A DNA stretch of 64,000 bases from Candidatus Spyradenecus sp. GTDB lineage: Bacteria; Verrucomicrobiota; Verrucomicrobiia; Opitutales; UBA953. Shown here piece by piece: positions 6,599-61,615 of the stretch. The position numbers were made by a program, and so were the translations under genes. The stretch lies in contig JAZSKX010000017.1 of NCBI GenBank assembly GCA_045535075.1, positions 1-64,000 on the forward strand, in the 5' to 3' direction. Each line of letters opens with the position of its first letter. Within the stretch, counting starts at the first letter, position 1. The notes beneath the pieces were generated by a model. The model was given only the letters and a program-made list of their open reading frames with translations, had not been told where the DNA came from and searched no databases.

Positions 6599-7891
6599 CT
6601 ACGCGCCGCGCCCAATCGAAGAATATTCGACTCCGGCGGCGACCATCGCTTCCGGCGGGAAGCAGTTGCGCCCGTCGAAAACCACCGGGATTTTCATCAA
6701 CGCGCGGAAGCCTGCAGGCGGGAACGCCTTCACTTCCTGCCATTCCGTGAAGATGAAGCAGACATCCGCATCTTTCAGCGCCTCTTCGATTGTGTCGCAA
6801 TACGTAATACCTTCCGGGAAAACCTTGCGGAAATTCTTCGCGCCGACCGGATCCCACGCAAAAATATTTGCGCCGTCGTCCAACAAAATCGGGACATTCG
6901 TCAACGCCGGGCCGTCGCGCAAGTCGTCCGTTCCCGGCTTAAAGGTTAAGCCGAGAATTGCGACTTTCTTTCCCGCGAAGCTTTCAAAATATTTACGCGA
7001 TTTTTTCAGTAATTTCAGCTTTTGGTTTTCGTTCACGTCAATTGCCGCCTTGACTGTTTTTAATTCACAATCGTGGAAATTCGCAAGCCAGTGAAGCGCT
7101 TTCGTGTCTTTCGGGAAACAGCTTCCGCCGTAGCCGATTCCCGCATTCAAGAAGCGGTTGCCGATACGCACGTCATAGCTCATTCCGCTCGCGACATCGT
7201 CGATATTCGCACCGACGATTTCACAAATATTCGCAATTTCGTTGATGTAAGAAATCTTCAGCGCCAAAAAGTCGTTCGACGCGTATTTGACCATTTCCGC
7301 GCTCCGGCGATTCATCACCAGCACGGGAGCGTTGAAGCCCGCGTACATCTCGCGAATCTTTGCCGCCGCCGCAGGATTTTCCGCACCGATGACAATGCGA
7401 TTCGGGTGAAGCGTGTCGCGCACCGCCGTCCCCTGCGCCAAAAATTCCGGATTCGATACCACGTCAATTTTCACGTTGTGCTTGAGATGCTGACGCAAGC
7501 GTAGCTCCACCTTGTCGTTCGTCCCGATCGGAACCGTCGATTTGATGATGACAACACAATCGCGCTCCGCCGTTGCCGCAATTTCGTCAACCACCGCATA
7601 AAGATAAGTAAGGTTTGCCGAACCGTCTTTTTTCTCCGGCGTCCCGACTCCGATAATAATGACTTCCGCATCGCGGTACGCCGCCGCACAATCCGTCATA
7701 AACGTCAGCCGCTCGCGGTTCTTGACGAGCAACTCGTCTAAGCCGTCTTCATAAATCGGCGATTTTCCCGCATTGAGCATCGCAATTTTATCAGCGACGA
7801 CATCGACGCAAGTTACATTATGCCCGTATTCGGCAAGGCAAACGCCCGTCACCAAACCCACATAACCCGTTCCCGCAACCGTAATCTTCAT
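6599..7891 (-). CDS. ugd: UDP-glucose 6-dehydrogenase
   Basis: GTGYVG, KSTVP.GT, NPEFL, GYGGSCFPKD and FKPGTDDLR motifs; alternative start at 7903. Confidence 0.95.
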   Translation of the reverse strand: MKITVAGTGYVGLVTGVCLAEYGHNVTCVDVVADKIAMLNAGKSPIYEDGLDELLVKNRERLTFMTDCAAAYRDAEVIIIGVGTPEKKDGSANLTYLYAVVDEIAATAERDCVVIIKSTVPIGTNDKVELRLRQHLKHNVKIDVVSNPEFLAQGTAVRDTLHPNRIVIGAENPAAAAKIREMYAGFNAPVLVMNRRSAEMVKYASNDFLALKISYINEIANICEIVGANIDDVASGMSYDVRIGNRFLNAGIGYGGSCFPKDTKALHWLANFHDCELKTVKAAIDVNENQKLKLLKKSRKYFESFAGKKVAILGLTFKPGTDDLRDGPALTNVPILLDDGANIFAWDPVGAKNFRKVFPEGITYCDTIEEALKDADVCFIFTEWQEVKAFPPAGFRALMKIPVVFDGRNCFPPEAMVAAGVEYSSIGRGA

Positions 7892-51360: not shown

Positions 51361-51427
51361 TTTTGAAAAAAGATTAAAGCTTAATGCTTAAAGCTTAAAG
51401 AAAGTGTAAGTTTTAAGAAAAAGCAGT

Positions 51428-51808
51428 TTAAGATTGAATTGATTGTTTGTTGCGACGAAGCCCGCTAAGCATTCTCGCAATTTCCTGAATGAGAGCCCCT
51501 AAGTCCTCAAAGCGTTCCCGCGAAACGTACCCCAAATCCTCCGCCAGTTGAAGTTGGCAAAAAACTTCCATCAACGAACCGTAAGCGATTTCGATAAAAC
51601 GGATTTGATCTTTCGGGGATTCCTTTGCACTTCCTTCAGCAATGTTTGAAGGGACGGAAATCACGGCTCGCCGCAATTGATCCGCAAGCGAAAAACGCTC
51701 CGCTTGCGGGAACGATTCCAACACGGAGTAGACGCGTTTCACCAGCGCGCGCGACTTCTGCCACACAAGCAACTTTTGAAACGAGAAAAATGTGTTGGGA
51801 CTTTCCAT
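51428..51808 (-). CDS. Four-helix-bundle (23S rRNA IVP-like) protein
   Basis: FQKLLVWQKS, FP..ERF.L.DQLRRA.ISVPSNIAEG and IAYGSL.E motifs. Confidence 0.94.
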   Translation of the reverse strand: MESPNTFFSFQKLLVWQKSRALVKRVYSVLESFPQAERFSLADQLRRAVISVPSNIAEGSAKESPKDQIRFIEIAYGSLMEVFCQLQLAEDLGYVSRERFEDLGALIQEIARMLSGLRRNKQSIQS

Positions 51809-51850
51809 CTTCAAACTCTCTTTAAGCTTTAAGCATTAAGCTCTAAGCTT

Positions 51851-53377
51851 TCAGCCGGCATAAGCCGCTTTCCACTGCGAGCAAGCGGCTTTGATTTTGC
51901 CTTCGAGCTCGTCGTCGAGTTTCGCTTTAGTGCGGATCTCCGTGAGCGTTTCCTTGGCGGAAGTTTCCAAAAATTCCTGAAGCGCGAGCGAGGCGGCGAG
52001 CGTCTTTTCCCGGGGAATGTCCGCAAAGAAATCGTGCTGCATCGCCCAAATCAACGCGATTTGCGAGGCAACCGGTTTCGGTTCGCCGGGACCTTGTTTG
52101 AAGAGCTCGACGAAGCGGTCGCCCTTGTCGAGAATCATTTTCGTCGCCGCATCAAGATCGCTCCCGAACTGCGCAAACGCCGCCATTTCGCGATACTGCG
52201 CAAGCTCGCCTTTGACCTTCCCCGCGACTTGCTTAAACGCCTTGATCTGCGCAGAAGAACCGACGCGGGAAACCGACAAACCGACGGAAATCGCCGGGCG
52301 CACGCCTTGGTTGAACAAGTCCGTTTGCAGGAAGATTTGCCCGTCCGTAATCGAAATAACGTTGGTCGGAATGTAAGCGGAAACGTCGCCCGCCTGCGTT
52401 TCGATAATCGGGAGCGCGGTGAGCGAGCCTTTTCCCGTAAGGCGTGCGGCGCGTTCGAGCAGGCGGGAATGCAGGTAAAAAACGTCGCCCGGATACGCTT
52501 CGCGCCCGGAAGGACGTTTCAGAATCAAAGAAATCTGGCGATAGGCGGCGGCGTGCTTCGACAAGTCGTCGTAAACGACGAGCGCGTCCATGCCGTTTTC
52601 CATAAACCATTCGCCGATTGCCGCTCCCGCGAAAGGAGCATACATCTGGTTCGCGGCGTTTTCCGACGCTCCCGCGACGACGATCACGCAGTATTCGAGC
52701 GCTCCCGCCTTTTCGAGTGTCGCAATCAGGCGCGCCACGCTGGAATTTTTCTGCCCGACGGCAACGTAAATTGAGTAAACCGGACGGAAATTCGGGTCGC
52801 CCGAAGCCAAGCCTTCGCGGTTGATGCGCGCTTGGTTGATGATGGTGTCGGTCGCGATCGTTGTTTTGCCCGTCGAGCGGTCGCCGATGATGAGTTCGCG
52901 TTGCCCGCGCCCGATCGGAATCATCGCGTCGATCGGCATAATGCCGGTTTGGAGTGCCTGATTGACGGGCTCGCGCGGCATGATGCCGGGAGCGATTTTT
53001 TCAATCGGCGCGCGTTCGGCGGCGTTGATCGGACCTTTGCCGTCCACCGGATTGCCGAGCGTATCGACAACGCGCCCGAGCAATTCCTTGCCCACGGGAA
53101 CGCTGAGCAGGCGTCCCGTCGTCTTGCAAGTCATGCCTTCTTTGAGCGTCGAAGTATCGCCCATGACAACGACGCCGACAATGTCCTGCTCCAAGTTGAA
53201 CGCGATGCCTTCGAGCCCGTTTTCAAACGCGAGCATTTCCGTCATTTGCGTTTTGGAAAGCCCGTCCACTTTCGCCACGCCGTCGGCGAGCTCAATAATC
53301 GTGCCGACGTTCGACTTTTCGGGTTTAGCGTCGAGCGAAGCAATCGCCGACCGGATATCTTCAAGAATCTGACTCAT
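51851..53377 (-). CDS. atpA: ATP synthase alpha subunit
   Basis: [17 protein letters not shown] and [19 protein letters not shown] motifs. Confidence 0.99.
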
Positions 53378-53418
53378 AGTTGTGATTTCGTTTTAAGTTT
53401 TTTGTTTTTGTTAAAGGG
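53375..53418 (-). repeat. atpA leader plus ATG, repeated at about 55877-55915 and 56910-56954
   Basis: Plus strand CATAGTTGTGATTTCGTTTTAAGTTTTTT(G..)TTAAAGGG occurs three times. Confidence 0.9.
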
Positions 53419-53426
53419 ATTGAAAA

Positions 53427-54350
53427 TTAACAGCCGCCGCCGCATCCTCCACGGAAACGGGATTTCGATTTCTTTGCCGTTAGCCAATAAGCAATTAATG
53501 TTTTTTGGAGTTCGGAAAACTGATCCTGCAATTTAACGCTAATCGGAGGCGTTGCCAAAAAATAAAGGAGTGCATGGAAATCGCGATCACCTTGAAGTTC
53601 CAACGGGACTTTGAGAATGTCTGATTCACGGGAACGCCACCGGGAAACACTCCTTAGCAGGAGAAAGTATTCGTAAATTTTTTGAGGATTATTTTCCGCC
53701 CAGCCGAGCAAGGCATCGCGCTCCCGTGCGAGAAGACGCTCGCGTTTCCCGATTAAATATTTTTGGCGAATATACATAAATTTCGCCATTTCTAATGCCA
53801 AGTTCCCATCTCGAATTTTCGTTGTTTTGGGAAGTTCGAGAATCGGTTTGTATAATTCTTCCGGCGAGTCATTTTCCGCTTCCGAGAAAATATCGGCTAC
53901 AATTTTCAGACTCATCTCGAATTGCTCCCTGGCAAGCTCCGGTGCCAAATTTTTCATTTCGGAAGAAAGTAATTCTTCGAGAAAACGCTCTTTCGCCTGG
54001 ATGTCAACAAGGGCGATTGACTCCAACCACCGATTTCCGCTCTTACAAAAATCGTCAAACGGCATACGCCACCCAAGCAACTCATTGTAAGTTTTCTTAT
54101 TTTTTTCAAATCGTTCCCGCGCTTTTTCCTGCGTTTTTAAACTCGGAATCTCAACAACAACATTTCCGGAAGAAACTTCGCGGGAAACCGGCTCATCTTC
54201 GTCGTAGAAATAACCAAACCGCAACGCCTTTTTCTCGTATTTTTGCGTTTTCGCGGTTTTTTCTCCGTACATAACAGGACCTGCCGGACGCGCAAAAAGC
54301 AAACTGCATCCGACAAAGAAAAAAGCCAAGATCGTTGAGAGATTATTCAC
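53427..54350 (-). CDS. Hypothetical exported protein (cassette gene B3)
   Basis: 307-aa ORF, GTG start overlapping the upstream gene end, hydrophobic N-terminus, C-terminal GGCGGGC. Confidence 0.7.
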   Translation of the reverse strand: MNNLSTILAFFFVGCSLLFARPAGPVMYGEKTAKTQKYEKKALRFGYFYDEDEPVSREVSSGNVVVEIPSLKTQEKARERFEKNKKTYNELLGWRMPFDDFCKSGNRWLESIALVDIQAKERFLEELLSSEMKNLAPELAREQFEMSLKIVADIFSEAENDSPEELYKPILELPKTTKIRDGNLALEMAKFMYIRQKYLIGKRERLLARERDALLGWAENNPQKIYEYFLLLRSVSRWRSRESDILKVPLELQGDRDFHALLYFLATPPISVKLQDQFSELQKTLIAYWLTAKKSKSRFRGGCGGGC

Positions 54351-55725
54351 TGGATTGCCCCGGACAAAAATCTTTTTTCACTGAAATACTTAATCCTGTT
54401 CCAGACCACAGTACGCCATCAGAATCAACGCTTACGAGTTTAATTTTTTTACACGTTGCAACCTGAACACTCTTCGGTGAAATCTCTTTCTTGTAGTCTC
54501 TCTCATCATTCTCTGTTTTCTCTATTTCAACTAATTCCTCTTCAGAAGCGACCGTCCACCTAACAGGAATTTTCCACGTTAACGTCCCAAGTATAGCTCC
54601 TTCTTCTGCATCCAAAAAATCCTTACTATTAAAGAAATCGTAAGGAAATTCAAATATGCCAAACCCGACAGTATCTTCCCAATCGTTTTCTTTCTTTAAA
54701 GCCATAAGTTCAGTTCCAGGTTCATGGACTGTCCCCGACATTCCCGAAAATATTCCTGTCGCACTCCTCTCTCCAATGCATTCCCAAAATCGAGCACCGG
54801 CGAATGAAACATCAGTAGGGTGTACTACTACTTTATATTTTGTTGTCATTCCTACCTCGGCTCGGACAGTCACTTTTTCTCCCGAATCAAGCTTACTAAC
54901 CGTTTCATAGAACGCATTTCGTTCATCAATAATTTCCTCGCCTATTTGGAATTCCGGACAGACAACAGAAATAAAATCCTTTAAAACCTCTCCGTCCGCA
55001 AACATCGCAAGTAACACAACATCCCCATCCACATAAAACCTATCCCCTAGAATTTCAATATTCCCCGCAGTTGGCGGAGTAATCGTCAACACGCTTCCAT
55101 CGGCAAACTCAAGTCGTACAGACGAAGGTCCTTCCAACTCCAAACTTTCATCATCTTTAGAGCGAATCCAAATTTTTAAAGATTCCCCGACTCCAATTTT
55201 TCGGCGCTCTGAAATCGGATAATTTTCTGTTAGCCCCGCATTTCCCGCATTCGGAGGGGCATAGAGAAAGCCTATGTGTAGCTTCCTTAAAGACCGTTTC
55301 AGAATAATTGTTACGTTAAGAGAATATGGACCGCCGATGGTTTCGTAATTCCCACTAAGAGAAAGGCTGTCAGAGGGAGAGCTTATCCATTGCTTTGTTT
55401 CATCCTCGCTCGGATTATGCAAGGTTGAACTCGCTGAAATTTCCCCGATATTCACAGTTGCGGTATCATCAGAAGAAACACGTACGGAATAAAGATTCGC
55501 GGAGTATTTAATGCTACAGGAAAATGCTGCCGTAAATTTTTGTTGGTAATAGGGTGCTGTTCCTGAAAACCCAAACGAAATCGTTGTTATTTCATACGCG
55601 CCGGAAATCTCCCGTGTAACAGCAGGAATTATGCTTTCCGCCAAGCCTTCAGGCGGGTTTTCTCCTCCACTCACAAAGCGCCAATCGGATATAAAACTCT
55701 GCCAATTTAATGTTTCCGTGCTCAT
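54343..55725 (-). CDS. Hypothetical protein (cassette gene A3), paralog of 57701-59383
   Basis: Starts MSTETLNWQSFISDWRFVSGGENPPEGL; shares SSDDTATV, GGPYSL, VHPTDVSFA and PVRW motifs. Confidence 0.8.
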   Translation of the reverse strand: MSTETLNWQSFISDWRFVSGGENPPEGLAESIIPAVTREISGAYEITTISFGFSGTAPYYQQKFTAAFSCSIKYSANLYSVRVSSDDTATVNIGEISASSTLHNPSEDETKQWISSPSDSLSLSGNYETIGGPYSLNVTIILKRSLRKLHIGFLYAPPNAGNAGLTENYPISERRKIGVGESLKIWIRSKDDESLELEGPSSVRLEFADGSVLTITPPTAGNIEILGDRFYVDGDVVLLAMFADGEVLKDFISVVCPEFQIGEEIIDERNAFYETVSKLDSGEKVTVRAEVGMTTKYKVVVHPTDVSFAGARFWECIGERSATGIFSGMSGTVHEPGTELMALKKENDWEDTVGFGIFEFPYDFFNSKDFLDAEEGAILGTLTWKIPVRWTVASEEELVEIEKTENDERDYKKEISPKSVQVATCKKIKLVSVDSDGVLWSGTGLSISVKKDFCPGQSSE

Positions 55726-55769
55726 TGTTTTATCCTTTTGGGTTATTTGTTCGTAGAGGGAAAAACATT

Positions 55770-55802
55770 CTACGCGGAAGCGAGAGAGGCGCGGAGGCGG
55801 GC
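55770..55802 (-). pseudogene. Orphan copy of the atpH 3' end (ARLRASLASA-stop)
   Basis: GCC CGC CTC CGC GCC TCT CTC GCT TCC GCG TAG versus native GCT CGC CTC CGA GCC TCC CTC GCT TCC GCG TAG, followed by a near-identical UTR. Confidence 0.85.
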
Positions 55803-55971
55803 GCTCTCCGAAATCGCATCGTCTGAACACGATCCGCCAACACTCCGCCTTCTTTAATCGGCTCATCTTCGTCGTTCATAGTTGTGATTTCGTTTTAAGT
55901 TTTTTTGTTAAAGGGGGGTTAGATCCATTTTGTTTTTCTCGACGCGCCTCCGCCTCACAAATCGCATTATA
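55801..55971. repeat. About 170-bp direct repeat, copy 1 (B-gene 3' end, atpA leader, A-gene C-terminal fragment)
   Basis: Near-identical to 56834-57009. Confidence 0.92.
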
Positions 55972-56766
55972 GATTGGGATAAGACTTTGATGGATACATC
56001 CTTCTTCATTTTTGTGTTCTTTGAGATAACGCTCCGACATTTTTCCAAAGTTTGTTTTTTGGAGAATTCGGCTCTTTTCGAAAAGCTCAAGGGGTTTATC
56101 CATGTCATCCGGATACGCTCTGATAAGCAATGAAATAAAATCGTCGACCACTACTAACAACGCCGTCATGTTGGTACGATATCTTATTCGACGCAATCTG
56201 TAAGAGTAAAAATCTTCACGACGTTTTAATTGTGCAACGACGTCCGCTTCGGTAAGATTCCGCGCACGAAGCGCATCTCCTTCAATTTTCAGCTGAACAC
56301 GCCCCCAATCGTCCTCACTTAAAAAATCCGCAATGAGCGCAGATGCCATTTCCGCGTTTTGGCGTAAAGATTCCATAGAAGCCCCTCGGAAGGGCGGACG
56401 ACAAAGCTCCTTCATGAAACGAAGCTTTGCAATTATCTCTTTCTCAATTTTCGGATTAGGTCTGAGCGGATTCCCCTCGTAGTAGAAGGATCCGTATCGA
56501 GGATTGCTGTATTGAGGATTATTAAATTCATCATAAGAAACGCGGCGTTTATACAAAATTCGGAATCGTTCTTCCCGAGGCAAAGCTAAAAAATCTTTGT
56601 TTTCCGGGAAAATAATGGCCCCCGGATGAGCTTCACGCATCATAATATTCGCCAACCACCGGCTATCTTCCTCTCGCGAAGGAAGATTCTCTCCCCTTTG
56701 TTCTTCCGCATGAACAACCACACAGAAAAAGCAAAAAAGAATTACCAACAATCGCCGCAAAAACAT
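55876..56766 (-). CDS. Hypothetical exported protein (cassette gene B2), paralog of B1
   Basis: Signal peptide; EER..IL..R.VSY.E, LR.NAE.ASAL.AD.LSE..WG and IYNAICEAEARREKQNGSNP shared with B1. Confidence 0.8.
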   Translation of the reverse strand: MFLRRLLVILFCFFCVVVHAEEQRGENLPSREEDSRWLANIMMREAHPGAIIFPENKDFLALPREERFRILYKRRVSYDEFNNPQYSNPRYGSFYYEGNPLRPNPKIEKEIIAKLRFMKELCRPPFRGASMESLRQNAEMASALIADFLSEDDWGRVQLKIEGDALRARNLTEADVVAQLKRREDFYSYRLRRIRYRTNMTALLVVVDDFISLLIRAYPDDMDKPLELFEKSRILQKTNFGKMSERYLKEHKNEEGCIHQSLIPIYNAICEAEARREKQNGSNPPLTKKLKTKSQL

Positions 56767-56768
56767 TA

Positions 56769-56912
56769 TTAAGAAATCCTTTCGCTCTTAAATTCCTTGG
56801 AAACATGAACTTCGAGCAACGGCGACGGTGGAAGCGCTCTCCGAAATCGCATCGTCTGAACACGATCCGCCAACGCTCCGTCTTCTTTAATCGGCTCATC
56901 TTCGTCGTTCAT
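56769..56912 (-). pseudogene. 47-codon orphan C-terminal fragment of an A-family gene, fused to an atpA-leader copy
   Basis: MNDEDEPIKEDGALADRVQTMRFRRALPPSPLLEVHVSKEF aligns with the A1 end ..DGCLPDRVQTMTLYKNQTPPPLLTVVVKKVF. Confidence 0.75.
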
Positions 56913-57009
56913 AGTTGTGATTTCGTTTTAAGTTTTTTTGTTTTTGTTAAAGGGGGTTAGATCCATTTTGTTTTTCTCGACGCGCCTCCGCCTCACAAAT
57001 CGCATTATA
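56834..57009. repeat. About 175-bp direct repeat, copy 2
   Basis: Near-identical to 55801-55971. Confidence 0.92.
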
Positions 57010-57717
57010 AATACATTGTTCCTCAGATCTCCATCTCGAAAATCCTTTTTTATACTCGTCGGACATCTTCCCTTTATGTGTTCTTTGGGGAATCAAACTT
57101 TTCTCGTAGAGGGCAACTGCCGCATCCCAATCGTCCGAATAAGCCTCAATAAGCAACTGATGAAACTCCCCCATGTCGTTAGGTCCGGTGTTGCTAAAAC
57201 TTCTCTCCACTAAAAACAGTCTGGCTTCATAAAACGAGCGTATCGCCTTCAAGCGCTTAGTAAATACGTCCTTATCAAGGTTTAGAGCTTGGAGTCGTTG
57301 CTCAGCTCTTTTCAACTGCTGCTCGCCCCATTCTTTTTCACTCAAAAGATCGGCAAACAATGCAGACGCTTTTTCTGCGTTACTTCTCAACTCATCCCGC
57401 GTTACATGTTTTTTACAATAGGCCCTGCACAGGGAATACGCCAGATAGCGCTTAGCACGAATCTCACATCGAACAGAGACGATTCCAGGCCCCCGGGGAT
57501 ATTTGTCTTCTTCATAAGAAACTTTGCGCCCAAGCAAGATTTTGTAGCGCTCCTCAACGGGAAGGCTCCAATATTCCTCTATCGTTCCCGCATAAATAAT
57601 TTTTCCGGGAAAAAATCGTTCTTCCAATATTTTCGCCATGGAAACCTCTTCTGCAGTAGCGGCATTCCCGCAAAAAAGCAACAAGGTCCATAAAACTAAT
57701 TTAAACAGGATATTCAT
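56947..57717 (-). CDS. Hypothetical exported protein (cassette gene B1)
   Basis: Signal peptide MNILFKLVLWTLLLFCGNAATA; start overlaps the A1 end. Confidence 0.8.
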   Translation of the reverse strand: MNILFKLVLWTLLLFCGNAATAEEVSMAKILEERFFPGKIIYAGTIEEYWSLPVEERYKILLGRKVSYEEDKYPRGPGIVSVRCEIRAKRYLAYSLCRAYCKKHVTRDELRSNAEKASALFADLLSEKEWGEQQLKRAEQRLQALNLDKDVFTKRLKAIRSFYEARLFLVERSFSNTGPNDMGEFHQLLIEAYSDDWDAAVALYEKSLIPQRTHKGKMSDEYKKGFSRWRSEEQCIYNAICEAEARREKQNGSNPL

Positions 57718-59383
57718 TTCCAAAAACTTTTTTTACCACAACTGTAAGTAGCGGCGGCGGAGTTTGATTTTTATACAAAGTCATGGTTTGAACTCGATCG
57801 GGCAAGCAACCATCCGCACGTATCATCGAATTTTGCCCTTCCTCGCCCGGATTATTCATGCTCCATCTTACCGGACAAACCCACTTCAAGACTCCAACAT
57901 CGCCAGCCTCCGACACAATCGCGGACTCGATTGTGTCGTCTGAAAAATTTGCAGCATAAAACGCACAATCCGTCCATTGGTTTTCACCATACAATTGGCA
58001 GGGTTCAGCCGGCAAATGAGCTGTATCAAGTCCAGGCTCCAAAAACAATCCGGATTTTTCCTCCGGGTGTTCATTCTCCCAAAAATATAAGTACGCAAAC
58101 GAAACGTCCGTCGGATGAACCGTTATCAAATAATAGTTCCCGTCGTAATAAGGATTTCCTTTATAGTCAATTCGTCGTTTAGCGATCTGTTCTTCTGTCT
58201 CCCCGTGCCACTTCAAAAAATTCACAAATTCTTCTTCCGTTAGCTTTTTTACCGTCTCGTGCGTAGGGTATTTAATTGTAAATTTCAACGGAATTTCTTC
58301 TCCATCGTCAAAACAAGCAATAAGTTGACACTCCCGCTCCGACTCCCCGTTTTTGGGAAGAAGACTTGTCTTTGCGCAAACCTCGTCTTTGTACAAATCA
58401 TAAGACTCCGCCCAAGAATCAGGCGCTCCTAGGAGTTTTTTTGTGTATTTATGCCTTAGTCGAACATGGGCAACCTCTGATACGCCAAACACATTACGTT
58501 CAGCAAGCTTCCCCTTAAGCTCCTCCTCAGAGTATTCCGGAACATGCATTAGCTCATCCGGCGTGTTTAAGAGAGTTTCAAAATAAACTTCCCGTAACGA
58601 CCGTTTTACGGTAATGGTTACAGAAAGACGATACGGACCACCGGCGTTGTGATAGGAAACGGAGATTGGGAACGTATTCGGGACTTTCTCTATCCAACCG
58701 GAATCATACCTCGCAGGATTGTTCAAGGTTGCCCTCACGAGATAATCTCCGACGGAAACCGTCGCCTCGTCGTCAGCTTCGACGCTGATTTCCACCCAAC
58801 TCCCACCGTCAATTTCAAGCGGAAGACTATCCCACGAAAATCCCAACGTATCAGATCGGGCGTTCCCGCTAAACGAAAGTCTCGCCGTTTTTATTTCATA
58901 GGGACCGGACTCTGTCCATGCTTCACTGACAACCCATTTTGCGCCAATTAAACGCTTTAAAGTAATCGTTACCGAAAGTGAATACGGACCGCCTATTGTT
59001 TCAAATGTTCCCGAGACTGCCGGAAGATTGCCTGCGGTGTCGCTCCACGCGGACGAAGCAATACCTCCGGCGTTAAGCCGCGACGAAACAAAATCCACTC
59101 CTCCAAGTTGCACGGTTGCGGTATCATCCGACGAAACAGATACTTCGTAAAAATTTACAGCTCCCAAAACACGAAACGAAAATTCCGCCGTGAATTTCTG
59201 CTGATGATACGGAGCCGTTCCCGAAAAACCGAACGAGATGGTTGTAATTTCAAAAAGTCCGTCCGAACTTCTTGTAACCGCCGGAACAACACTTTCCCCC
59301 AAGCCTTCCGGCGGGTTTTCTCCTCCACTCACAAAGCGCCAATCGGATATAAAACTCTGCCAATTTAATGTTTCTGTGCTCAT
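57701..59383 (-). CDS. Hypothetical protein (cassette gene A1) with a duplicated beta-rich N-terminal domain
   Basis: 560-aa ORF; two units with DD.ATV and GGPY.LSVTIT.KR; no signal peptide. Confidence 0.8.
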   Translation of the reverse strand: MSTETLNWQSFISDWRFVSGGENPPEGLGESVVPAVTRSSDGLFEITTISFGFSGTAPYHQQKFTAEFSFRVLGAVNFYEVSVSSDDTATVQLGGVDFVSSRLNAGGIASSAWSDTAGNLPAVSGTFETIGGPYSLSVTITLKRLIGAKWVVSEAWTESGPYEIKTARLSFSGNARSDTLGFSWDSLPLEIDGGSWVEISVEADDEATVSVGDYLVRATLNNPARYDSGWIEKVPNTFPISVSYHNAGGPYRLSVTITVKRSLREVYFETLLNTPDELMHVPEYSEEELKGKLAERNVFGVSEVAHVRLRHKYTKKLLGAPDSWAESYDLYKDEVCAKTSLLPKNGESERECQLIACFDDGEEIPLKFTIKYPTHETVKKLTEEEFVNFLKWHGETEEQIAKRRIDYKGNPYYDGNYYLITVHPTDVSFAYLYFWENEHPEEKSGLFLEPGLDTAHLPAEPCQLYGENQWTDCAFYAANFSDDTIESAIVSEAGDVGVLKWVCPVRWSMNNPGEEGQNSMIRADGCLPDRVQTMTLYKNQTPPPLLTVVVKKVFGNEYPV

Positions 59384-59431
59384 TGCTTTATCCTTTCGTT
59401 TGAGTTATTTGTTTGTAGAGGGAAAAACATT

Positions 59432-59842
59432 CTACGCGGAAGCGAGGGAGGCTCGGAGGCGAGCGAGCGTTCCCGCAAGCGAGGCATCGTAAACATCGTC
59501 GCCGACCTGGACGCGCAAGCCGCCGAGAAGTGCGGCGTTTTCCGTGGCGACGGGCACAATCGGGCGATTATAAATTTCGGAAAAATGCGCAGCGATGGCA
59601 TTTACCGTTCCCGCAGCGAGCGTTCCCGCGTATTCAATGCGAGCTTCGGAAAAACGCAGTTCGCGGGCGACGGCGGCGTAAAACGCCTCAAGAATCGGAC
59701 GCAATTGCGCCGACGGGAACGCCTTGGGGAGTTCCGAGAGCACGGCTTTGACGCGCGCGGCATCGATGTTCCCGTCCGCCCCGCGCGAAAGCTCCGTGAG
59801 CCGCGCCGTCACTTTCTGCAAATTTTTATCTTTCTTAGCCAT
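59432..59842 (-). CDS. atpH: ATP synthase delta subunit (short form)
   Basis: LLGGLRVQVGDDVYDASL motif; operon position. Confidence 0.92.
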   Translation of the reverse strand: MAKKDKNLQKVTARLTELSRGADGNIDAARVKAVLSELPKAFPSAQLRPILEAFYAAVARELRFSEARIEYAGTLAAGTVNAIAAHFSEIYNRPIVPVATENAALLGGLRVQVGDDVYDASLAGTLARLRASLASA

Positions 59843-59900
59843 TTTCTTTTAAAAATTTATTTTTTAGAGAAACCACGAATTTCACGAATGAACACGAATT

Positions 59901-60761
59901 TTATTCCGAAGATTCGAGCGTAAAATTTTCATTGCTTAAAAGCATTCGCCGTTCCCGCTCGATTTGCGGAATGCCTTTCGGCGGACACGGCAAATCTTCC
60001 GGTAAAGTTCCGCCGAGATCTTTAATCGTTTCGCGAACTTTTTTGCCGACTTCGTAATGAGCGGAATTTGCGGCGGTTTTTCCCGTGATGTTTTCCCGAC
60101 GGATTTTCTCCTCCGCTTGCGTCGCACGGAAAAGGTTCGCGGCAAGTTCCGTGCTACCCATGTGATCGAGAATTTTTTGATTTTTCTTCAACCCTTTGTG
60201 CGCGTGGATCGCTTTCGCGTCCATGCCGCCGTAAAGCCCTTTGTAGCCATGATTTTGGAATATTGCGTAGTCCAATTCCGTGCGAACTCCGGCTTGTTTG
60301 GCTGTTTCGACAAGAGCTTTATTGTGTTCCCGCAACTCGTTGCGCAAAAACAATCGTCGATCCTCTTCGCTGAGAGCCTTAAAGGCAGCATCATCCGCAA
60401 GCTCCTGTCTCCGCGTTTGAATCGCGAAATACGTTTGTCCAAGCGCGATAACGGGCTTCGTCGGATCGCCGTTTTGAACGATAAGGTAACATGCGTAGCG
60501 CGAGAGGTGATAATCTTCGATTTCGCGTTGAGCACCTTTCGCGGCAGTGATCAATTTCACCTTGAGGTGAAAATGATCCGAAGCCTTTGCCCCCGCGGTT
60601 TCGCAGGCGGTTTGGGCTCGAACGATTAGCTCTTTGAATTTTTCCCAGCGGCTGTATTCCAGTGCGGGGAAAAGCTCTCGCGCAGACCAATACTCCCCGC
60701 CTTCGGCAGTGGTGTGTCGGAGCGCTTCAAACGTTTGATTATGTTTTTCGGGAACGGTCAT
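59901..60761 (-). CDS. dinD: DNA damage-inducible protein D family
   Basis: EYWSAREL, LSRYACYLIVQNGDP.K, QTYFAIQTRRQE and HMGSTELAANLFRATQ motifs. Confidence 0.92.
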   Translation of the reverse strand: MTVPEKHNQTFEALRHTTAEGGEYWSARELFPALEYSRWEKFKELIVRAQTACETAGAKASDHFHLKVKLITAAKGAQREIEDYHLSRYACYLIVQNGDPTKPVIALGQTYFAIQTRRQELADDAAFKALSEEDRRLFLRNELREHNKALVETAKQAGVRTELDYAIFQNHGYKGLYGGMDAKAIHAHKGLKKNQKILDHMGSTELAANLFRATQAEEKIRRENITGKTAANSAHYEVGKKVRETIKDLGGTLPEDLPCPPKGIPQIERERRMLLSNENFTLESSE

Positions 60762-60907
60762 GTGTTTTTATTTTTCGGAGAAGAAACCACGAATTTCACG
60801 AATGAACACAAATGTTTTTAACGCAAAGTAAAAAAAGAATTCCGTGGTTAAAATCATTCGTGGAATTTGTGTAATTCGTGGATTCTCCTTTCTTTAAGCA
60901 TTAAGCT

Positions 60908-61465
60908 CTAATCTTTCTTTATCTCTTTTGCGGCGGCTTCGGCGAGGCGGGATTTTTCCGCGGCGGGAAGGTCTCGAGCGAGGAGCTTGGCGGTTGTTTC
61001 GACAACGAGCGCGGCGACTTCGCCTTTCAGATCGGCGAGCATTTTTTCGCGTTCCCGCGCGATGTTTTCGGCGGCACGCTTTTCGGTTTCCTCAGCGCGG
61101 GAAATCGCGTCTTGCGCGGCTTTTTCCACCGTTTCCTTAGCGGCTTTGCGGGCGGATTCGATGACGGCGGCGGCTTCCTGCGCGGCTTGCGTCATTTTCG
61201 CCTTGTAGTCGGCTTCGGACTGCGCGAGCTTCGCCTTCATTTCATCGGAAAACTGCAAGCCTTCCGCAATTTTTGCCTGTCGCTCGGCAATCGTTTTCAT
61301 CAGCGGGCGGAAGCCGAAATACCACACGACGAGCGCGAGCACGGCAAAGCTGATAATTTGGACGACGAGCGGGCCGGCTTCGATGCCGAATTTCGTTGTT
61401 ACCTGTGTAAATTTGTTTCCGCCTTCAGCGGCGGGAACGGCACTGGCTAAAATTTGAGCAAACAT
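60908..61465 (-). CDS. atpF: ATP synthase subunit b
   Basis: TM helix followed by PL...I.ERQ.KI..GL coiled coil; start MFAQILAS. Confidence 0.94.
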   Translation of the reverse strand: MFAQILASAVPAAEGGNKFTQVTTKFGIEAGPLVVQIISFAVLALVVWYFGFRPLMKTIAERQAKIAEGLQFSDEMKAKLAQSEADYKAKMTQAAQEAAAVIESARKAAKETVEKAAQDAISRAEETEKRAAENIAREREKMLADLKGEVAALVVETTAKLLARDLPAAEKSRLAEAAAKEIKKD

Positions 61466-61504: not shown

Positions 61505-61615
61505 TAGTGAATAATGAATAGTGAATAATAAATGGTTCATTGCTAAAGTTTTTGCACGAATGAGCAAAAACTTTGAACACTGCGTTATTCGTTATTCACT
61601 ATTCATTATTCACTA
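61505..61615. repeat. Empty heptamer-repeat hairpin with perfect 24-bp arms
   Basis: TAGTGAATAATGAATAGTGAATAA (61505-61528) and its exact reverse complement (61592-61615). Confidence 0.9.

Follow-up and report, generated by a model that had tools for sequence, protein, structure and literature searches.

The cassette stack between atpH and atpA

The stretch of DNA analysed here (hereafter the window) consists of 64,000 nucleotides from Candidatus Spyradenecus sp., a member of the Opitutales (assembly GCA_045535075.1, contig JAZSKX010000017.1). That contig is 286,859 nt long, with the window as its first 64 kb, and the genome (1.95 Mb in 18 contigs) is 99.45% complete. On its minus strand lies an ATP synthase operon with the gene order atpB, atpE, atpF, a DinD-like gene, atpH, a stack of cassettes, atpA, a gene for an intervening-sequence protein (IVP), atpG and atpD; the flanks follow the canonical order atpB-E-F-H-A-G-D. 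The gap between atpH and atpA measures 6,057 nt and is occupied by the cassettes, two-gene units whose first and second genes we call A and B. Mapped by listing of open reading frames (ORFs), repeat finding and self-BLAST of the region 53,300-59,900, the locus reads as follows in the direction of transcription, with the classes of A (I, II) and types of B (1, 2) as described below:

59432-59842, minus strand: atpH, F1 delta subunit, 136 aa; the upstream conserved anchor
57701-59383, minus strand: A1, 560 aa
56947-57717, minus strand: B1, 256 aa counted from its ATG, type 1 B; overlaps A1 by 17 nt
56909-56953, minus strand: atpA leader with ATG, copy 1; 45 nt, 98% identical to 53374-53418
56769-56912, minus strand: orphan A tail of 47 codons, remnant of a displaced class I A gene
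55876-56766, minus strand: B2, 296 aa, an intact orphan B of type 1
55804-55920, minus strand: leader with ATG, copy 2, and the first 25 A-tail codons; a duplicate of join J1 that ends at join J3
55729-55803, minus strand: copy of the atpH 3' end (last ~34 nt) and of the spacer that precedes A genes, from alignment with relatives
54343-55725, minus strand: A3, 460 aa, with one PA14-like domain and a class II C-terminal half
53427-54350, minus strand: B3, 307 aa, type 2 B; overlaps A3 by 8 nt
53378-53418 and 51851-53377, minus strand: native leader and atpA; the downstream conserved anchor

The original prediction, made from the letters of the window alone, had listed these elements and their order, and all of them were recovered on the minus strand, almost to the base. 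A complete cassette begins with a 48-nt spacer, followed by genes A and B, of which B extends at its 3' end into the native leader. The native atpH-atpA spacer, which is 47 nt long in the relative G014, is the sequence that recurs in the stack as the leader. As had been proposed, the modules are tightly coupled two-gene units in which the stop codon of A and the start codon of B overlap. The genes were also correctly placed inside the atp operon: we found no convincing terminator in the cassette spacers (a terminator scan returned 30 sites against 21.9 ± 4.4 expected), and the cassettes are probably transcribed together with the operon. None of the RNA runs contained this stretch. For A3, a 507-aa ORF is open at this position, but it begins upstream in non-conserved sequence and we took A3 as 460 aa.

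Two joins carry the history of the stack. At J1 (56909/56910) the ATG of the leader is fused to the A codon for an invariant asparagine, Asn518, and at J3 (55803/55804) an A-tail fragment is fused to the copy of the atpH 3' end. The orphan tail behind J1 is 46% identical to residues 517-557 of A1 (tblastn); its best match, with 73% identity, is to residues 529-565 of P0002, the last 37 of that protein. B2 follows 2 nt after the tail; one extra C makes it longer at the 3' end, where it enters the leader and stops at a TGA overlapping with the ATG that follows. In the second copy, leader and ATG cover 55920-55876 and the 25-codon tail fragment 55879-55804. The whole segment 55801-55974 aligns to 56834-57012 with 94% identity over 179 nt, 109 of which are at 98%, and 55737-55803 aligns to 59399-59465 with 93% identity. 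The repeats inside the locus are 45-179 nt long with 94-98% identity, too long and too similar to be due to chance. B3 (54186-54205) also agrees with the beginning of the A tail at 19 of 20 nt, which we treated as chance.

Both anchors are ordinary ATP synthase genes. AtpH matches Pfam OSCP (E 5.5e-14) and the NCBIfam delta models, and is 86-98% identical in close relatives. The protein covers only positions 84-172 of the 172 in the OSCP profile, the N-terminal domain of delta appearing shortened; since the 136-aa query found near-full-length matches in 17 other genomes of the genus, this short form is a trait of the lineage and not damage caused by the cassettes. AtpA is 95-100% identical across the genus, and atpA, atpG and atpD are 98-100% identical to those of relatives, in the same order. 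AtpF was identified by its ATP-synt_B match.

A triple stack might arise artificially if the assembly had chained together alleles of coexisting strains, each carrying a single module. The genome is indeed a de Bruijn assembly, its 18 contigs have ends that overlap by exactly 141 nt, which implies k = 141, and the modules have the repeats of 45-179 nt in common. The longest exact repeat in the locus, however, is 65 nt, well below 141, so that every join is crossed by unique assembly words, and the fusions of ATG to the Asn518 tail and of tail to atpH 3' copy are novel sequences that cannot be derived from single-module alleles. We also aligned Logan contigs from four runs of four different studies to 53,000-60,000. 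A1, B1, B2, A3 and B3 were present in all four, at 92-100% identity and similar depth (12-20 across all 30 bins of the locus in run X3), and none of these contigs fused atpH straight to A3 or B1 straight to atpA. The Logan contigs end at the repeats and never cross the whole stack, as short-word unitigs must. A patch at the 5' end of A3 that derives from A1 (see below) also occurs in independent contigs (records 3, 11 and 20) from three runs, and one relative, G028, carries an independent stack of two cassettes. The stack is thus unlikely to be an assembly chimera, and its origin from alleles with one module per strain seems to us very improbable.

Elsewhere in the same genome (G000), two contigs (C8:1-300 and C9:1-300) open with the same 141 nt inside another A-like gene, which has a PA14-type N-terminus about 45% identical to residues 39-96 of A1. 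Their 5' contexts differ, so at least two further A-like genes are left unresolved by the assembly.

Polymorphism and exchange at the atp spacers

We searched 19 genomes of the genus for atpH and atpA. Both genes lie on one contig in 15 of these, and G028, with a partial atpA at a contig end, adds a sixteenth. The spacer between them is about 45-53 nt long in six of the 16, including G014, which is the closest relative of the window (atpH 98% and atpA 100% identical), and 121 and 236 nt long in two more. In four genomes it measures 788-1116 nt and holds an unrelated pair of genes for small membrane proteins; in two it consists of one A-B pair. G028 has A3-B3, then a join between atpA codon 44 and the atpH 3' end, and then the other cassette. 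The remaining one is the window itself, with the triple stack. Empty, single, mixed and stacked states thus coexist, and the polymorphism between close relatives that the original prediction had expected is evident. The locus is not specific for A-B pairs: as the same spacer also takes an unrelated two-gene membrane-protein cassette, it is a general hot spot for cargo. A-B pairs are moreover found away from the atp genes, at L007, L009, L011, L030 and L031.

Further evidence of movement comes from L013, a locus in another species with a single A3-B3 cassette in the same place. Nucleotide identity between the window and L013 is 97.4% for A3 and 99.3% for B3, and the corresponding synonymous divergence (dS) is 0.067 and 0.020. 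The surrounding genes are more divergent, with dS of 0.20-0.24 for atpB, atpF, the DinD-like gene and atpH, and of 0.147-0.168 for atpA, atpG and atpD. Counted in 200-nt windows, identity to L013 is 97.5-100% in the body of the cassette (55610-53411) and 92-98.5% in the atp flank. Because the dS of the cassette is far below that of the atp genes, A3-B3 must have been exchanged between two species-level lineages after their atp genes had diverged; the cassettes do move horizontally. We had also considered a step in identity to L013 at 55803 (90.6% upstream, 97% downstream) as the donor breakpoint, but G014 shows a similar step (94%, 97%), and we therefore used dS and sliding windows in its place. 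The ratio of non-synonymous to synonymous divergence (dN/dS) is about 0.2 for A3 and 0.15 for B3, compared to 0.02-0.05 for most atp genes; A3 and B3 are under purifying selection.

The first ~75 nt of A3 depart from this pattern in following A1 of the window and not the L013 allele, with 65 nt identical at 55652-55716. The 5' ends of A1 and A3 have thus been homogenised by a short patch of gene conversion between stacked copies. The identity of the first 28 residues of A1 and A3, noted in the original prediction, is real, but its reading as a constant N-terminus before a variable C-terminus was not supported: the shared segment coincides with this conversion patch, and divergence beyond it is graded, without a sharp boundary.

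Taken together, the atpH-atpA spacer is very probably a polymorphic hot spot for horizontally exchanged cassettes, which in the window became stacked by illegitimate joins. The stacking proceeded through non-homologous joins that duplicated boundaries. In the sequence of events that we infer, an incoming fragment with atpH, A1, B1 and the leader would have been anchored by homology upstream and joined illegitimately inside a resident A gene, leaving the A tail and an intact B2 behind the newer A1-B1 pair. J1 would later have been duplicated (the second copy being 98% identical over 109 nt), and a further illegitimate join would have fused an A tail to an atpH 3' end, bringing in A3-B3. At least one duplication and one further illegitimate join would be required, in whichever exact order. 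The joins themselves may have arisen from one-sided, homology-anchored (illegitimate) recombination in the conserved atp genes.

The other cassette was found at L036 (364-1334), L035, L037, L038 and L041 (in G016, G022, G021, G017 and G028, respectively). The product of its first gene is 194 aa long and has a proline-rich N-terminus and one N-terminal membrane helix. The second, of 116-129 aa with several hydrophobic stretches, is present in three of the four genomes with a spacer of 788-1116 nt and absent in G021. Neither product has a match in Pfam, PADLOC or PHROGs. Beside this cassette in G022 (L035, ~1400-1558) is an ORF that ends in VFFLVGCGGGC, the start of a B3 signal fused to the Cys/Gly tail of B3, apparently the deletion scar of a former B3 gene.

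Across the genus, cargo occurs in four atp spacers: atpF-atpH, atpH-atpA, atpA-atpG and atpG-atpD. The DinD-like gene of the window (59901-60761, minus strand), between atpF and atpH, matches NCBIfam PRK11525 (E 2.5e-128) and the PADLOC candidate defence family PDC-S13 (E 7e-115), and is flanked by 38-nt direct repeats (59868-59905 and 60782-60819, 92% identical). The atpG-atpD spacer also contains a DinD-like gene in L008 (35% identical) and in G014 (290 aa). The IVP gene between atpA and atpG (51428-51814, minus strand) encodes a four-helix-bundle "23S rRNA intervening sequence protein" (PF05635, E 1.8e-38). It is bracketed by 37-nt inverted repeats (51369-51405 and 51815-51851, 92% complementary), of which a related 26-28-nt copy is found at 60892-60919, just past atpF; the gene with its repeats looks like a small mobile insertion. 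L008 has a gene for a 71-aa Zn-ribbon protein (7298-7513; PF09855, E 2.5e-30) between atpF and atpH. Finally, a 49-nt imperfect palindrome with a 13-nt loop lies between atpE and atpF (61505-61553 and 61567-61615, 78% complementary), with related copies in L013, L008, L012 and L046.

The A and B proteins

The AlphaFold2 (AF2) model of A1 is all-β (predicted local distance difference test, pLDDT, 85.3) and comprises two PA14-like domains (residues ~3-145 and 147-261), an immunoglobulin (Ig)-like domain (~262-372) and a conserved C-terminal β domain (~373-560). In structure comparisons residues 3-145 matched PA14 domains with Z 8.8 (3ac0_B, 114 residues aligned, root-mean-square deviation 3.5) and 8.6 (7kmp), and with Z 7.3 the PA14 domain of an adhesin (5j6y) and 6xa5. 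Residues 147-261 reached Z 7.2 (8okh_B) and residues 262-373 Z 5.6 (SbsB/SbsC). The tool states a background of Z 7-8, which the PA14 values exceed only modestly, and the model accordingly supports a PA14-type β-barrel fold in A by a modest margin. The VIA-align structure searches were dominated by residues 4-261 of A1 and barely covered 373-560. A3 and its kin lack the second PA14-like domain.

At the sequence level this fold leaves little trace. A1 and A3 have no match to Pfam PA14 (PF07691) nor to any Pfam family at E ≤0.1, and no NCBIfam family scored above threshold; a profile search against PDB sequences gave a single chance-level match (E 0.85). When the whole A1 model was compared with PDB and BFVD by Foldseek, the matches were generic multi-β-sandwich proteins (complement C3/C5, phage tail and structural proteins) with TM-scores of 0.1-0.2, PA14-named phage proteins among them, and were not used. 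Look-ups in the ESM Atlas (A1 265-560 and P0074) gave 0.83-0.84, below the 0.9 at which we would have followed a lead.

Identity between A1 and A3 is 64% for residues 1-144 and 28% for the remainder. The N-terminus is not hydrophobic in any of 18 A proteins (maximum Kyte-Doolittle hydropathy, KD, ≤1.61), in agreement with the earlier remark that A lacks a signal peptide. In a collection of 5.8 billion proteins A has 21 relatives, and those with a named label all belong to Opitutales. In whole genomes, 13 of the 18 others in the genus contain a match and 118 genomes from the four remaining genera of the family contain none; A in its full length is restricted to one genus. No relative was found in viral contigs, and a scan of metagenome contigs gave one distant PA14-type match (L047).

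A profile search against 1.84 billion representatives reached further, with 96 proteins at E ≤0.001. These include a Pfam-PA14 protein (P0105) and P0085, which has a sub-threshold GLEYA match (E 7.5e-4, 20.2 bits, cut-off 26.2). We scanned 27 remote matches to profile positions ~270-556 with Pfam: seven have bacterial TSP3 repeats, and one is a 2,518-aa protein with CHB_HEX_C, Fn3_assoc, Laminin_G_3 and CARDB domains. Several remote homologues of the C-terminal module have N-terminal signal peptides, judged by eye. With signal peptides, TSP3 repeats or a multi-domain context in its homologues, the C-terminal module normally works outside the cell.

B differs from A in both export and fold. All 16 B proteins have a hydrophobic N-terminus (KD ≥2.07), bearing out the signal peptide that had been predicted for them. 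B1 is helical and has an N-terminal hydrophobic export signal with a conserved cysteine; B2 is 38.5% identical to it (tblastn), and its AF2 model (pLDDT 82.2) is all-helical. The best match of this model, to a helical region of Munc13-4 (Z 8.2), is below the level that is meaningful for helical proteins and was discarded. B3 has a lipoprotein-like signal (FFFVGC) and a Cys/Gly-rich tail. Type 1 B proteins almost invariably have a cysteine close to where the hydrophobic segment ends; among type 2 it occurs in B3 of the window and in three of the four other close B3 homologues that keep their N-terminus, and missing from two distant members. This pattern suggests that B proteins are lipoproteins. 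B3 had been thought unrelated to B1 and B2, wrongly in our assessment: profile-profile comparison of the two types gave a probability of 88.8% (E 2.5e-6, 97 columns), by which they are distant homologues. We found neither the A nor the B family in Pfam, NCBIfam, PADLOC or PHROGs, and A, B and the proteins of the other cassette had no PHROGs or PADLOC match.

A homologue of B lies downstream of 11 of the 13 A genes examined. The C-terminal half of A falls into two classes, and in all nine classed pairs class I is accompanied by a type 1 B and class II by a type 2 B, so the type of B follows the C-terminal class of A. L011 is a recombinant with a two-PA14 head, a class II tail and a type 2 B. 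The partners can also part. In L009 an open B of 474 aa comes after a frameshifted A, L007 and L011 have extra B genes or fragments of the other type, and L030 and L031 have two B genes each. B outlives A, as B2 behind its 47-codon tail and the B of L009 show. The orphan modules of the original prediction are thus present insofar as an A remnant precedes an intact B2; the remnant, however, is the last 47 residues of A and no reserve toxin domain. Complex prediction from alignments of A1 262-560 and B1 24-256 reached scores of 0.00 and 0.01, the mark being 0.32, a result that weighs neither way on binding.

Possible functions and known systems

We favour, at a probability of roughly 40%, the reading of the A-B cassettes as a toxin/immunity (effector/immunity) array, as the original prediction had it. 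Polymorphic, coupled and mobile gene pairs support it; no toxin domain, trafficking domain or secretion system was found. A would be a released, receptor-binding antagonist without signal peptide, its PA14-type lectin-like head or heads joined to the conserved C-terminal module in the manner of a bacteriocin-like effector. B would be an exported, probably lipid-anchored helical immunity factor that acts outside the cytoplasm and is matched to the C-terminal class of A, which would explain why it persists after A has been destroyed. The confinement of A to one genus agrees with this, a narrow range being typical of bacteriocins. In a more specific and rather doubtful form of this proposal, A and B constitute a new class of protein bacteriocin and immunity protein of gut Verrucomicrobiota, with a PA14-lectin-headed toxin whose C-terminal killing module is undescribed and a lipoprotein B, which has colonised the spacers of the atp operon, essential and highly expressed as it is. 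If so, the site in the atp operon would provide constitutive expression, protection from deletion and ready homology arms for interspecies exchange.

Several findings weigh against a toxin/immunity role. Searches with Pfam, NCBIfam, PADLOC, PHROGs and PDB sequence profiles yielded no toxin, nuclease, pore-forming, peptidase or trafficking domain in A. In the window's own, nearly complete genome we found no sheath of a type VI secretion system (T6SS; PF05943, TssC/VipB, 0 matches, E. coli control positive) and no phage-type sheath (PF04984, 0 matches, controls positive in three genomes), and no export route is known here for an A without signal peptide. A varies along its whole length, and both classes keep His456, Asp472, Trp-Glu 435-436, Asn518 and other residues; such invariance fits a scaffold for binding or catalysis no less than a toxin. 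For two of the 13 A-like genes no B could be detected within 1.5 kb, and since the classed pairs are kin, their agreement in class and type represents no more than one or two contrasts that are independent in evolution. Unrelated cargo is accepted by the same spacer, so that position alone is uninformative on function, and no single independent contig spans the whole stack.

Some of these observations would fit a variable, adhesin-like pair that binds glycans at the cell surface, with the lipoprotein B anchoring or exporting A and with phage or host immune pressure driving the variation. The PA14-like domains (Z 7.3-8.8 to glycosidase and RTX adhesin modules), the S-layer-like Ig domain, the signal peptides, TSP3 repeats and 2,518-aa multi-domain setting of the remote homologues, the Trp, His, Asp and Asn that are invariant in both classes of A, and the missing toxin domain (Pfam, NCBIfam) all agree with such a role. 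Yet a signal peptide is absent from all 18 members of A, and intact B genes are found where A is deleted or frameshifted (B2, L009) while extra B genes accumulate, a persistence that would be difficult to account for in a B that served its own A alone. We regard a surface pair as unlikely. Less probable again is that the cassettes are modules of anti-phage defence or exclusion, the atp spacers forming a small defence island that is hard to delete. Here the main support is the DinD-like gene in the adjoining spacer with its match to PDC-S13, joined by the DinD-like genes in other atp spacers of relatives and by a strain-level turnover and horizontal exchange typical of defence genes. Against this, A1, A3, B1, B2, B3 and both proteins of the other cassette matched none of the PADLOC-DB 2.0 families, no nuclease, NTPase or usual defence domain was detected with Pfam and NCBIfam, and we know of no defence architecture in which a cytoplasmic lectin-like protein is paired with an exported partner.

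A toxin/immunity function, if true, would make this a first system of inter-bacterial antagonism for animal-gut Opitutales, with a toxin module and an immunity fold, both new, contributed by the two unannotated families. Irrespective of function, the locus shows clearly, in a natural setting, how an essential housekeeping operon can serve as a landing pad for horizontally exchanged cargo. Its joins are preserved well enough for the order of events to be read, and the empty site, single cassettes, a deletion scar and stacks can all be found among relatives. A full-text literature search, with subscription journals outside its scope, found nothing in print on cassettes in atp operons or on the A-B pair. 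The kind of locus, a polymorphic two-gene array with orphan partners, is known; what is new is the A and B proteins, the clade that hosts them and their position within an essential operon.

Among characterised proteins, A resembles the PA14 carbohydrate-binding domains that occur as inserts in glycosidases and in RTX and yeast adhesins, through the fold predicted for residues ~3-145 and 147-261; sugar binding by A is putative. Unlike members of that family, A is missed by the Pfam model at E ≤0.1, and its Z-scores are just above background. Lectin-like bacteriocins have no signal peptides, a feature they have in common with A. The LlpA proteins contain B-lectin (MMBL) domains, whereas A is PA14-like and has no match to Pfam B_lectin. 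LlpA and L-type pyocins are reported to be antagonists built of tandem lectin-type domains that act on close relatives (PMC6240691, PMC6465234, PMC13463100); killing by A is putative. LlpA reportedly needs no cognate immunity factor (PMC6465234), whereas A is nearly always followed by B.

The VARTIG loci of Thermococcales are reported likewise to have a hypervariable β-sandwich/Ig protein followed by variable genes, to recombine between genomes, to be organised like polymorphic toxins and to be of unknown function (PMC8416519). They differ in being archaeal, in encoding a large multi-Ig protein, in lying outside housekeeping operons and in the protein families involved. With the CDI (contact-dependent inhibition), Rhs and MafB systems, as reported in PMC3482391, the locus shares a strain-variable first gene, a coupled partner, orphan fragments and partners, and diversification by recombination. 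The arrangement of their immunity genes is found here as well (11 of 13 A genes, and the orphan tail with B2), the immunity role of B being putative. In contrast to these systems, A has no signal peptide, two-partner secretion (TPS) domain, PAAR, RHS/YD repeats, MafB-type N-terminal region or recognised toxin domain; its divergence is spread over the whole protein, and the orphan comprises only 47 residues.

There is also a parallel with the arrays of orphan immunity genes in the T6SS effector/immunity clusters of Vibrio cholerae. No T6SS was found in the genome studied here (no TssC), the anchors are ATP synthase genes instead of secretion genes, and the A and B families are uncharacterised, with a putative toxin/immunity role. 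In V. cholerae, according to PMC5361080, an effector is displaced while the old immunity gene and the shifted 3' end of the effector are kept, through homology-facilitated illegitimate recombination. Both kinds of array grow by addition of acquired two-gene modules at a conserved anchor; in both, the 3' end of the displaced first gene and its partner are retained, producing arrays of orphan partners; and for both, one-sided, homology-anchored illegitimate recombination is the proposed mechanism (for V. cholerae, PMC5361080). By this analogy, the anatomy and dynamics of the atpH-atpA stack match those of effector/immunity arrays that would be built by one-sided recombination.

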